From contig JBMLQL010000064.1 of NCBI GenBank assembly GCA_049241565.1, positions 8,506-72,505 on the forward strand: a stretch of DNA of 64,000 nt. The letters run 5' to 3'. The DNA comes from Bacteriovoracaceae bacterium (GTDB taxonomy: Bacteria > Bdellovibrionota > Bacteriovoracia > Bacteriovoracales > Bacteriovoracaceae). The notes under the pieces are model-generated. The model saw only the letters and a program-made list of their open reading frames with translations, made no database searches and was not told the origin of the DNA. Both the position numbers and the translations under genes were made by a program. Shown here in pieces: positions 42,544 through 44,721 of the stretch (positions within the stretch are counted from its first letter, which is position 1; each line of letters starts with the position of its first letter).

Positions 42544-43539
42544 ATGATCAAACTCACTCATGCCAAGAAAATTTTTGATAAACGTGGGATTGCAGGCCTT
42601 CACTCACTTAATCTCTCTTTTGATGGGTCAAAACTTTTTGCCATTATGGGCCCCTCGGGTTCTGGTAAAACCACTTTGCTTAAAGCTATTTCAAAAGAGA
42701 TTGTTTTAGACTCTGGAGTCATTACCGGAAACGATCATGTGGCCTATCTCAATTCAACGACCATGCTTGACTCAAGCAAAACAATGCATCAAACACTTTT
42801 TGATGCCATCACGGTGACTGAAGACGAAGATAAAAAAATTCAGCTTGTGCGTGATATGAGTATGCTCTTTGAGATGACAGGGAAACTTAAAACTCTTGTC
42901 TCTGAACTCTCGGCCGGGCAATACCAGCGAGTCCTCCTCGCCAGCTTTTTAATTAATCGTCCCACTGTTCTTCTTTTGGATGAACCCTTTAGTAATCTTG
43001 ATGAAACTCTCAGGCAAGAGCTCATGATTCAATTGAAGGCCTTAATTCTTGAAAGAGAAATTATGGTTTTGTGGGTCACTCATCAAACTGGAGAGGCCCT
43101 AAGCTTTGCTGATCATATTGTTCTTCTTCAGCATGGTTCAGTCGAACAACAAGGAAGTGCTCAAGAGCTCTTCTTTAAACCTAAGTCTATTTTTGCGGCT
43201 CAATTTTTTGGACATCATAATCTCTACGCTATTCACCACTCAAATCACACTTCAACATGGGTCACTCCTTGGGGTGAGCACCCGCTTAATATTGAAGAGA
43301 AAAGACCTGAAGTCGTTTTAGTTATTCCTGAAGAGAGTATCTCTTTAGGTGATGGCCCTTATGAGGGAAGAATCCTCTCTCTGCAATTTCTAGGGGCCCT
43401 CACTAAGGTTGAGCTTGAGTCCTCGGCCCAAATTTTAGTGGCAAAAATACCTAGTCGCCTTGCTCTAGCACTTCAGAGAGGGCAAAAAATCAGCTTTAAT
43501 ATTAAATGGTTAGACTGCTTTGAGATTGGGTGCTTGTAG
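42544..43539 (+). CDS. ABC transporter ATP-binding protein with a TOBE-like C-terminal extension and no adjacent permease
   Basis: Contains GPSGSGKTT, LSAGQYQRV and LLLDEPFSNLD. Confidence 0.8.
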   Translation: MIKLTHAKKIFDKRGIAGLHSLNLSFDGSKLFAIMGPSGSGKTTLLKAISKEIVLDSGVITGNDHVAYLNSTTMLDSSKTMHQTLFDAITVTEDEDKKIQLVRDMSMLFEMTGKLKTLVSELSAGQYQRVLLASFLINRPTVLLLDEPFSNLDETLRQELMIQLKALILEREIMVLWVTHQTGEALSFADHIVLLQHGSVEQQGSAQELFFKPKSIFAAQFFGHHNLYAIHHSNHTSTWVTPWGEHPLNIEEKRPEVVLVIPEESISLGDGPYEGRILSLQFLGALTKVELESSAQILVAKIPSRLALALQRGQKISFNIKWLDCFEIGCL

Positions 43540-43548
43540 AATAAAAAA

Positions 43549-43576
43549 GCCCAAAAATGTTAGCGCATTTTTGGGC
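43549..43576. terminator. hairpin after the ABC ATPase gene with a TTAGCG loop
   Basis: 11-bp stem GCCCAAAAATG / CATTTTTGGGC with loop TTAGCG. An A-run lies on the 5' side and there is no T-run on the 3' side. Confidence 0.5.
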
Positions 43577-43583
43577 AGCATCT

Positions 43584-43602
43584 TAGCTAAAAACCGGAGG
43601 GC
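43584..43602 (+). repeat. direct repeat copy 1: TAGCTAAAAACCGGAGGGC
   Basis: A perfect 19-mer, repeated at 43836..43854. Here it forms the 5' arm of an imperfect hairpin, CCGGAGGGCA-C-TGCCTTACGG (43594..43614), followed by a T-rich tract. Confidence 0.85.
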
Positions 43603-43764
43603 ACTGCCTTACGGTTATTCTATTATTTAACTTTCCATAAAAAAATTCAACTTTATTTCAACTCTGGAATTTAATCACTGAAAGCAGGATTAAAATTATC
43701 ATCCTTCACAAGATTGAGTAATAAACCTTTGCGGGGAAAACTCCTCTCTAAGGGGGTGATTTTT

Positions 43765-43842
43765 ATGCTGATATGGCTTTTGGTAGTCATAGTGAAGTTT
43801 CTTGAACTCATAGTAGTTCTTTTAGACTTCCCATCTAGCTAA
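43765..43842 (+). CDS. unannotated small ORF encoding a 25-aa hydrophobic peptide, MLIWLLVVIVKFLELIVVLLDFPSS
   Basis: It falls below the ORF-track size cutoff. AAGGGGGTGA sits 5 nt upstream of the ATG. The TAA stop lies inside repeat copy 2, and a GC-rich hairpin with a T-tract follows directly. Confidence 0.5.
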   Translation: MLIWLLVVIVKFLELIVVLLDFPSS

Positions 43843-43854
43843 AAACCGGAGGGC
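43836..43854 (+). repeat. direct repeat copy 2: TAGCTAAAAACCGGAGGGC
   Basis: Identical to copy 1, 252 bp downstream. It contains the small ORF's stop codon and the 5' arm of the hairpin. Confidence 0.85.
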
Positions 43855-43880
43855 GTGGTTAGCGTCACGCCCTCCTTTCT
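43848..43880. terminator. GC-rich hairpin terminator, apparently bidirectional, with a TTAGCG-containing loop
   Basis: Stem GGAGGGCGTG / CACGCCCTCC with loop GTTAGCGT. TTTCT follows on the plus strand. AAAAACC precedes it, which gives a T-tract when read on the minus strand. Confidence 0.65.
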
Positions 43881-44022
43881 CCGTGCAATCAGATAGTTAT
43901 CCTAGACTGTCAAATCCTTAAACACCCCCTTGTAGAATCTTCACTGCCCCTGCCCCAGGGCTCGTTTCAAATAGATAATCAGTTTAATTTTATTGCTTCA
44001 CGAACCTGACAAAGGATTAACG

Positions 44023-44721
44023 ATGAAAAAGCTTCTACTCTCTTCTCTACTTGCTCTTTCTTTTAACTCCATGGCCGTTTGTAATGAAGCTACACTTAAT
44101 GAAATGAGCCTCACGATGGAGCAGCTTGAAGAAGTTGTAAACATGTCGATGGATCAAGATAAGCCGAGCTTTAAAAAACGTGCTTACACTGGTTATGATA
44201 TGCTTGTTAAAATCAATACGAATTTCAAAGCACCAGTTGTTGGTAAAGATACATACTTTGGTTATATCTACACAGTTCCAGGAAATAACTCGATCGTAAA
44301 ATACCGTGACGAAATAACAGCTAACGACCATTACAAATCAGAAATCAATGAGCCGTCTACTCAGTATATGTCATCCTATAAAGTAAATGACTTCAAAGCC
44401 GCTAACGGACTTGAGCTAATCAATGCTGGTGGAGCTTATGTAAGACTAAAATCAAAAGACTTTAATATGTCATCTGGTGGGACACTAAATCTAAGCTTCA
44501 AGATCCCTCTTCAAAAATCTGGATCAGTTGATATCATTGTGAAAAAAGTGAACGGAAAACTTAAAACTCACGTGAAAAATGGGCAAGGCCAATTGGTTCC
44601 ATTTGACTCACTGAATCTTAATGCGAAGAAAACAATGATTACAGGGACTTCGATTCTGAACGGTGTTCGTAATATTGAATTCATCAGTGGTGGAAAAGCG
44701 GTTCATACCTATTCAATGTAA
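44023..44721 (+). CDS. secreted hypothetical protein
   Basis: Signal peptide MKKLLLSSLLALSFNSMA. AAAGGA lies upstream of ATG 44023; the track's TTG start at 43993 is less likely. Confidence 0.65.
   Translation: MKKLLLSSLLALSFNSMAVCNEATLNEMSLTMEQLEEVVNMSMDQDKPSFKKRAYTGYDMLVKINTNFKAPVVGKDTYFGYIYTVPGNNSIVKYRDEITANDHYKSEINEPSTQYMSSYKVNDFKAANGLELINAGGAYVRLKSKDFNMSSGGTLNLSFKIPLQKSGSVDIIVKKVNGKLKTHVKNGQGQLVPFDSLNLNAKKTMITGTSILNGVRNIEFISGGKAVHTYSM

Follow-up and report, generated by a model that had tools for sequence, protein, structure and literature searches.

A conserved hydrophobic peptide gene with a predicted self-locked mRNA and a putative divergent small RNA: a possible type I toxin-antitoxin-like cassette in Bdellovibrio-like bacteria

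Introduction

Type I toxin-antitoxin modules are almost invisible to annotation, and those that are known come from a few well-studied phyla; many of the families are multi-copy. We asked whether such a module could lie in a 483-nt gap in the genome of a Bacteriovoracaceae bacterium, between a permease-less ABC ATPase gene (42544..43539) and a gene for a 232-aa secreted protein (44023..44721). All positions refer to the window, the whole stretch of 64,000 nucleotides that was analysed (assembly GCA_049241565.1, contig JBMLQL010000064.1, positions 8,506 to 72,505). A first-pass annotation, made from the letters alone, had placed here an unannotated gene for a 25-aa hydrophobic peptide with a structured leader, either type I toxin-like or a small membrane protein. 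It had also called this the only large non-coding gap of the window. The gap does contain the window's longest run free of ORFs of 100 aa or more (456 nt), but other such runs reach 380-402 nt.

Hallmarks of type I systems include divergent sRNA genes, direct repeats that are read in opposite directions, pairing between the Shine-Dalgarno (SD) sequence and an anti-SD, and pairing of the 5′ and 3′ ends (PMC4147584, PMC8594479, PMC6733600). The T1TAdb descriptors likewise specify a toxin mRNA with a sequestered SD, often with 5′-3′ pairing (PMC8594479).

Results

A conserved 25-codon gene

Translation of the plus strand confirmed the hydrophobic ORF:

43765..43842 (plus strand): 25-codon ORF, ATG 43765 to TAA 43842, encoding MLIWLLVVIVKFLELIVVLLDFPSS; identified by translation, conservation and substitution pattern

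The peptide has a mean Kyte-Doolittle hydropathy of 2.14 and is 60% Ile, Leu and Val, with K11, E14 and D/N21 of its 25 residues falling within the hydrophobic run. We fetched orthologues of the two flanking genes and read metagenome contigs with the same gene order, from sources that include SRR29928719, SRR14194043, DRR420786 and the sulfidic-cave samples behind DZBG01000007. Besides the window lineage, four lineages (G001, L022/L023, L029 and L031) carry the locus, with the following orthologous peptides:

Window: MLIWLLVVIVKFLELIVVLLDFPSS
G001: MLIWLLVVIAKFLELLVALLNFPSS
L022: MLIWLLVVIVKLLELLVVLLDFPSS
L029: MLIWLLIVVVKLLELMIVLLDFPSS
L031: MLIWLLIVIVKLLELMVVLLDFPSS

Start, stop and frame are kept across all five of these closely related lineages, with neither indels nor internal stops. 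Among the window, G001, L022 and L029 sequences, the ORF has 17 variable sites, distributed 9/6/2 over codon positions 3, 1 and 2, and pairwise pN/pS is 0.09-0.51. Every replacement stays within a residue class (V/I/L/M/F/A or D/N) and all other changes are synonymous. Since a random change in this ORF would be synonymous or within-class 63% of the time, the probability that all 17 changes would be so under random, non-coding mutation is about 4e-4. The coding signal is no more than suggestive (P about 0.04-0.06) when the pair of window and congener is taken alone, the congener being the genus's one other species, a MAG labelled Bdellovibrio sp. from a sulfidic cave. Between these two, the ORF-bearing stretch is 90-98% identical, compared to 65-80% for the flanking genes, and this excess places the locus beyond chance. 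A small (<60 aa) hydrophobic peptide gene under purifying selection, as expected for the type I class, is thus present in five lineages, and we regard the ORF at 43765..43842 as very probably a real gene.

We considered longer in-frame ORFs of 42 aa (TTG 43714) and 37 aa (TTG 43729). These were rejected: the upstream start, which is TTG in the window and ATG in G001, has no SD and reads AAG in two lineages. As this codon is not conserved, we place the start at ATG 43765. The 42-aa extended version had no homologue among 5.8 billion proteins, and searches of Pfam and NCBIfam at E <= 10 gave no match, barring a chance match at 0.25 to the 37-aa extension. On the minus strand, a 46-aa ORF (43811..43671) overlaps the conserved plus-strand ORF and has no family match.

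A near-perfect ribosome-binding site predicted to be folded shut

The strong SD that had been noted at 5-nt spacing is indeed there: AAGGGGGTGA occupies 43750-43759 and is separated from the ATG by TTTTT. In its extended form, TAAGGGGGTGAT (UAAGGGGGUGAU in RNA, 43749-60), all 12 of its positions match the complement of the universal 16S 3′ end if one G.U pair counts as a match, where the anti-SD is assumed and not read because the assembly lacks the 16S 3′ end. No other site in the 2.98-Mb genome combines a 12/12 match with a start codon, and eight sites match at 11 or more of 12 positions with a start codon 4-10 nt away.

Upstream of the ATG lies the leader:

43731..43764 (plus strand): leader with GGGGAAA (43733-39), anti-SD ACUCCU (43740-45) and SD UAAGGGGGUGAU (43749-60)

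Its sequence is 100% identical between the window and G001 and has one change in L022. The plus-strand mRNA has a predicted fold with z = -3.7 relative to shuffles. In a consensus fold of four lineages, with 58 pairs, 98.7% of pair cells are paired, compared to ~50% in slid-partner controls; there are three compensatory pairs, and the covariation score is reached in 13 of 500 shuffles. Because the structure was derived from the sequences on which it was tested, these statistics are support and not proof.

Three pairings in the predicted fold bear on translation, and its fourth element is the terminator described below. First, ACUCCU (43740-45) pairs with GGGGGU (43752-57), which hides the SD. 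Second, the start region UUUUUAUGCUG (43760-70) pairs with the stop region UAGCUAAAAA (43836-45), so that the two hold each other. Third, the 5′ GGGGAAA (43733-39) pairs with a UUUCUCC tail 3′ of the terminator (UUUCYCC across lineages). In silico, the probability that the SD is unpaired is ~0 in the full-length RNA and rises to 0.1-0.3 after the 7-nt 3′ tail is trimmed, when GGGGA:UCCUC forms instead and partly frees the SD. Both alternative pairings of the anti-SD/anti-anti-SD arrangement proposed earlier were therefore reproduced by folding. The GGGG lies at 43733-43736 as described, and the CTCCTCT element exists, but at 43741-43747, one base from where it had been placed. On these predicted folds, the 3′ tail is likely to be the trigger of the switch. 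Sequestration of the SD, the feature by which T1TAdb describes the type I class, is thus found in the predicted folds and in the four-lineage pair counts, and the structured leader of the first reading has become a conserved predicted mRNA fold that hides the SD.

Could the locus instead encode a non-coding structured RNA in which the ORF is incidental? The strong fold is compatible with this, as are the nine ORF substitutions between window and congener, all of which lie in loops or preserve pairs. However, the codon-position pattern with exclusively conservative replacements, the perfect SD at ideal spacing and the retention of start, stop and frame in five lineages all argue for translation, and no Rfam family matches (the top match reaches 20 bits, below the gathering threshold of 39). 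We therefore consider a non-coding RNA improbable.

Two observations on the SD region stand apart from this switch. Because UUUUU follows the anti-SD:SD hairpin (43740-43764) directly, the scan also calls this hairpin a plus-strand terminator-like element, both in the window and in each of the three other lineages scanned; it could end some transcripts just upstream of the AUG. We also examined an inverted repeat between the SD region (43745-61) and ACACCCCCTT (43920-36) as a functional pairing and rejected it: the distal arm differs among relatives, reading CCGCC in a same-species contig and ACACCTTCTA in other lineages, and it belongs to a block that lineages without the ORF and its surroundings also have.

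A plus-strand terminator abutting the stop codon

The GC-rich 10-bp hairpin reported within 6 nt of the stop codon starts 5 nt after it:

43848..43882 (plus strand): hairpin 3, terminator; 10-bp stem, loop GUUAGCGU, tail UUUCUCC pairing with the leader

The stem (43848-57 / 43866-75) is G+C-rich. The T-tract that had been described after it is present but weak in the window (TTTCTCC), where the terminator scan calls the minus strand alone; in the congener, the hairpin is called terminator-like on the plus strand, with the tail TTTCCCTTTC. In three lineages, the 3′ arm carries four substitutions in all, each of which yields a G.U pair if the plus strand is read but would yield an A.C mismatch if the minus strand were. 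Thus, hairpin 3 works in a plus-strand RNA.

This geometry raises another possibility, that the ORF is a leader peptide whose attenuator controls read-through into the 232-aa secreted-protein gene. The stop codon is 5 nt from the terminator, so that a terminating ribosome would melt the terminator 5′ arm; the weak T-tract and the Ile/Leu/Val-rich peptide would also fit. However, three sister lineages without these sequences (described below) keep both the downstream gene and the block corresponding to 43905-43950 in the window. Moreover, the downstream gene is not a branched-chain amino-acid gene, and the folds show no antiterminator alternative. We judge attenuation quite improbable.

The 232-aa gene (44023-44721) encodes a protein with a signal peptide and always lies between the ABC ATPase gene and lipA. 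No Pfam domain was found in its product, which is confined to the clade apart from one 37%-identical relative among 61 family genomes. The block at 43905-43950 before this gene (CTGTC.AA...GACAC....T.TAGAA.CT.CA) is conserved, also in lineages without the ORF and its surroundings, and probably acts as promoter or operator for the 232-aa gene itself. Complementarity between the block and the SD region (43745-61) is not kept.

Upstream of the leader is a further conserved region:

43620..43680 (unstranded): conserved control island, 95% identical to the congener, with TTCAACT-N4-TTCAACT at 43646-43663

The island takes in the putative minus-strand sRNA promoter described below and, as judged from sequence, probably the control region of the mRNA. 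By eye, there are two candidate plus-strand promoters, TTCAAC-18-TTTAAT (43646-75) and TTATCA-17/18-(T)AATAA (43696-43725). The direct repeat TTCAACT-TTAT-TTCAACT (43646-43663) has a 7-4-7 layout, one helical turn, with TTCATCT as the second half in three other lineages. A 7-4-7 spacing of direct repeats is the one used by OmpR/PhoB-type response regulators. We rejected TTCAACT-N4-TTCAACT as a regulon motif, as it occurs nowhere else in the genome and its second half is not kept. A cis-antisense promoter downstream of the ORF was also rejected: the scan called none there, and a TTGACA at 43913-08 is not conserved.

A putative sRNA gene on the opposite strand

The nearby repeats of the first-pass annotation proved to include a 19-nt exact direct repeat, at 43584 and 43836, whose two copies are the only ones in the genome:

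43584..43602 (unstranded): repeat copy 1, TAGCTAAAAACCGGAGGGC; its minus-strand reading is the complement of the mRNA tail
43836..43854 (plus strand): repeat copy 2, the proposed sRNA target, covering the last codons, stop codon and terminator 5′ arm

Within the mRNA, copy 2 is the segment that pairs with the start-codon region (43760-70). The 17-nt core of the repeat (43585-43601 in copy 1) shows no change in either copy in any of the five lineages, unlike the bases on its flanks, which vary.

Copy 1 falls between a promoter call and a terminator call on the minus strand:

43622..43650 (minus strand): sigma-70-like promoter, TTGAAT-17-AATAAT, called, at a conserved position
43549..43576 (minus strand): hairpin 1, intrinsic terminator; 11-bp stem, minus-strand loop CGCUAA, then U6
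43543..43615 (minus strand): putative antitoxin-like sRNA of ~73 nt, bounded by the promoter and terminator calls

In the window and three other lineages, this is the sole promoter-like call in the gap and occupies the homologous place; the hexamers are kept (TTGAAA in L022), and the spacer and +1 region vary. Hairpin 1 lies 70 bases downstream on the minus strand (43576->43549). In all four lineages scanned, the window's included, it is called as a terminator on that strand, and 28 nt of it are invariant in five lineages; on the plus strand it has no T-tract. Since copy 1 lies in this probable divergent gene, the sRNA would be complementary to the mRNA tail: its predicted sequence contains GCCCUCCGGUUUUUAGCUA, which perfectly complements the mRNA from the last codons through the stop codon to the 5′ arm of the terminator. 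The putative sRNA (fold z = -3.5) would consist of a 5′ hairpin with the repeat complement, a linker and the terminator. Its antisense segment and terminator are invariant, and the linker and 5′ end vary.

The two proposed RNAs also share a loop. CGCUAA, the loop of the sRNA terminator, is complementary to UUAGCG, the core of the loop in the mRNA terminator. No lineage deviates from this hexamer, although a base next to it in the loop does change. The stems of hairpins 1 and 3 are unrelated and their loops identical. The predicted cofold of sRNA and mRNA gains 13.6 kcal/mol over the separate folds. Neither the two repeat copies nor the two loops vary in any lineage, so the evidence for the proposed partners is conservation, with no covariation between them.

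The main alternative is that the ORF encodes a stand-alone, translationally regulated small membrane protein, with no toxin and no RNA antitoxin, that hairpins 1 and 2 (the latter containing copy 1) are terminators of the ABC gene, and that the 19-mer and shared loop are relics of a duplicated terminator. In favor of this alternative, the peptide gene and mRNA fold are supported independently of any sRNA. The absence of covariation between the repeat copies also fits it, as does hairpin 2, which folds better on the plus strand, is followed there by a T-rich tail and could be a plus-strand terminator of the ABC gene. Against it, hairpin 1 is canonical on the minus strand alone in all lineages scanned, and the unpaired part of copy 1 (AGCTAAAAA) is, like the 6-nt loop, invariant amid varying neighbours. 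Unrelated stems with identical loops are the opposite of what decay after duplication would leave, and a triple lock on a perfect SD is not obviously needed for a benign protein. Further points on both sides come from the distribution of the locus.

The locus is present or absent as a unit

Three sister lineages (L024-26, L027 and L032/33) have an intact ABC gene, and their flanking genes are only 147-172 nt apart. When filled and empty sites were aligned, the missing block proved to extend from hairpin 1 (43549) to the tail of hairpin 3 (about 43880):

43549..43882 (unstranded): whole cassette, 330 bp, delimited by alignment of filled and empty sites and followed with the tree and an AU test

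The stand-alone unit of the first reading therefore corresponds to a cassette that is present or absent as a whole among sister lineages. The borders of the indel are the two terminators, hairpins 1 and 3, as a divergent two-gene unit predicts; this argues against hairpins 1 and 2 as terminators of the ABC gene. Likewise, since both hairpins are missing together with the ORF beside an intact ABC gene, they are parts of the cassette and not of that gene. These data weigh against the small membrane protein alternative. In its favor, the cassette is single-copy: blastn, tblastn, exact patterns and a covariance model detected no paralogue in the window's own genome. Taking both sides together, we consider a stand-alone small membrane protein unlikely.

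Relatives of the cassette are confined to the clade. Searches by BLAST of 41 relatives and 237 family genomes, and by covariance model of 151 family genomes, each recovered the congener alone. Pattern scans of metagenome and genome collections returned a same-species contig, the congener, one chance match and nothing else.

We built an unrooted tree of seven taxa from 3.8 kb of the flanking genes, leaving out two partial outgroup contigs that destroyed resolution. All four inner branches were supported, and monophyly of the carriers was rejected (p-AU 0.0004). As the carriers form two clades, each with a sister lineage that lacks the cassette, the cassette was gained or lost at least twice within one genus-level clade. 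Two losses are the simpler reading, because the cassette occupies the same site in both clades.

Presence/absence polymorphism and a direct repeat could also mark the relic of a small mobile element (MITE-like), in which the 19-nt repeat would be a target-site duplication. However, the repeats lie inside the indel and not at its borders, there are no terminal inverted repeats, the same site is occupied in two separated clades, and the sequence is single-copy, with none in 151-237 family genomes outside the genus. A mobile-element origin is extremely improbable.

At the empty sites (L024 3996-4060, L032 1958-2010), the stop codon of the ABC gene is followed by short A/T mini-hairpins (CAAAAATATTCGTTTTT, GAAAAATCAATTTT) similar to the central part of hairpin 1; a deletion could have left them as scars, or they could represent the ancestral terminator. 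In L029 (249-1243, on the DRR420786 contig), the orthologue of the ABC ATPase gene is split into two called ORFs of 185 and 138 aa, through a frameshift or through faulty assembly, with an intact cassette downstream.

Discussion

The reading of this gap as an unannotated peptide gene with a structured leader, type I toxin-like or a small membrane protein, is supported by the comparative sequence data. Beyond it, we propose, at what we judge to be roughly even chances, that the cassette at 43549-43882 is a new two-gene module resembling type I toxin-antitoxin systems. For this module, we infer that the peptide is toxic, that both transcripts are made, that they pair and what follows from their pairing.

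In the model that we propose, the plus strand would give an mRNA of ~150-200 nt that encodes a single-helix hydrophobic peptide. When full-length, this mRNA would be folded so as to be untranslatable despite its near-perfect SD. Removal of the 3′ tail would let GGGG pair with CUCC and leave the SD partly free, as the in silico folds suggest. From the minus strand, the sigma-70-like promoter and the canonical terminator would produce an sRNA of ~73 nt carrying a perfect 17-19-nt complement to the stop-codon/terminator-arm segment of the mRNA. The sRNA would dock loop to loop and then pair with the 17-19-mer. This pairing would open the protective 3′ hairpin, leaving the mRNA either exposed to decay or locked in an untranslatable form. 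Since the stop-codon/terminator segment also shuts the start codon, one 17-nt element could serve as translation lock, 3′ stability element and antitoxin target.

Among known systems, the closest appear by comparison of layout to be the divergent E. coli pairs tisB/istR-1, shoB/ohsC, zorO/orzO and dinQ/agrB, which are type I systems with a divergent, non-overlapping sRNA (PMC4147584, PMC3919570). As in these pairs, a hydrophobic peptide gene and a short, here putative, sRNA gene lie back to back, the complementarity is short and perfect (17-19 nt here) and comes from a direct repeat that is read in opposite directions, and the mRNA is structured and, by prediction here, translationally inert. 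The complementarity of OrzO is 18 nt. In TisB, a peptide of 29 aa, a Lys and an Asp lie ten residues apart inside the helix, and the spacing of K11 and D21 in the cassette peptide is similar, a likeness that we take as a lead and not as a test. Unlike in the E. coli pairs, in which the sRNA targets a long 5′ UTR, the target proposed here (43836-43854) covers the ORF 3′ end and a terminator arm. The peptide is without sequence similarity to TisB, ShoB, ZorO and DinQ, and the phylum is a different one.

Other type I systems share single features of the cassette. In par of the Enterococcus faecalis plasmid pAD1 (Fst; RNA I / RNA II), complementarity from direct repeats is combined with contact between terminator stem-loops (PMC4147584). 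The cassette resembles par in its oppositely read direct repeats, its proposed terminator stem-loop contact and its non-collinear complementary segments. However, the par RNAs converge on one shared bidirectional terminator, with the repeats over the ribosome-binding site, whereas in the cassette the two genes point away from each other and end in separate terminators whose loops are complementary, and it is the 3′ end of the ORF that the repeat covers. As in hok/sok and aapA1/isoA1, an upstream anti-SD hides the SD (PMC6733600, PMC5416894, PMC9841398), and a long-distance 5′-3′ lock with activation by 3′ trimming is predicted. The antitoxins of those systems, unlike the putative sRNA, are cis-antisense RNAs and overlap the mRNA in its 5′ part. 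In Bacillus subtilis, the antitoxin RNAs of txpA/ratA and bsrG/SR4 base-pair with their toxin mRNAs at the 3′ end (PMC4147584), as proposed here. Such 3′-end pairing suggests control by degradation and not by blocking of the ribosome-binding site. The Bacillus pairs, however, are convergent, overlapping cis-antisense RNAs that form long duplexes, whereas the sRNA of the cassette would be encoded 220 nt upstream and share 17-19 nt plus a loop with its target.

We found no report in the literature of a type I system in Bdellovibrio-like bacteria. Tentatively, and with the balance tilting against it, the cassette may represent the first type I family of these predatory bacteria, with a mode of action not described before, in which a divergent trans-acting sRNA docks on the terminator loop and invades the stop-codon/terminator segment. 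If so, a divergent, non-overlapping sRNA that hits the 3′ stop/terminator segment would widen the range of RNA antitoxin mechanisms. The locus would also be a compact example of an mRNA with three nested locks, as predicted by folding, on a perfect ribosome-binding site. If the peptide is non-toxic, the cassette would still encode a conserved, unannotated small membrane protein under unusually elaborate translational control.

A second tiny hydrophobic ORF was observed outside the window, on the minus strand of contig C20 of genome G000. It encodes a 23-aa peptide, MEVAITLMIPLLGMGMMILAYGQ, unrelated in sequence to the 25-aa peptide, and is preceded by a near-perfect SD (TAAGGAGGTGAC) with 5 nt to the ATG. 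It lies between ORFs of 153 aa and 98 aa on the same strand, ~7.4 kb from the end of the reverse-complemented contig.
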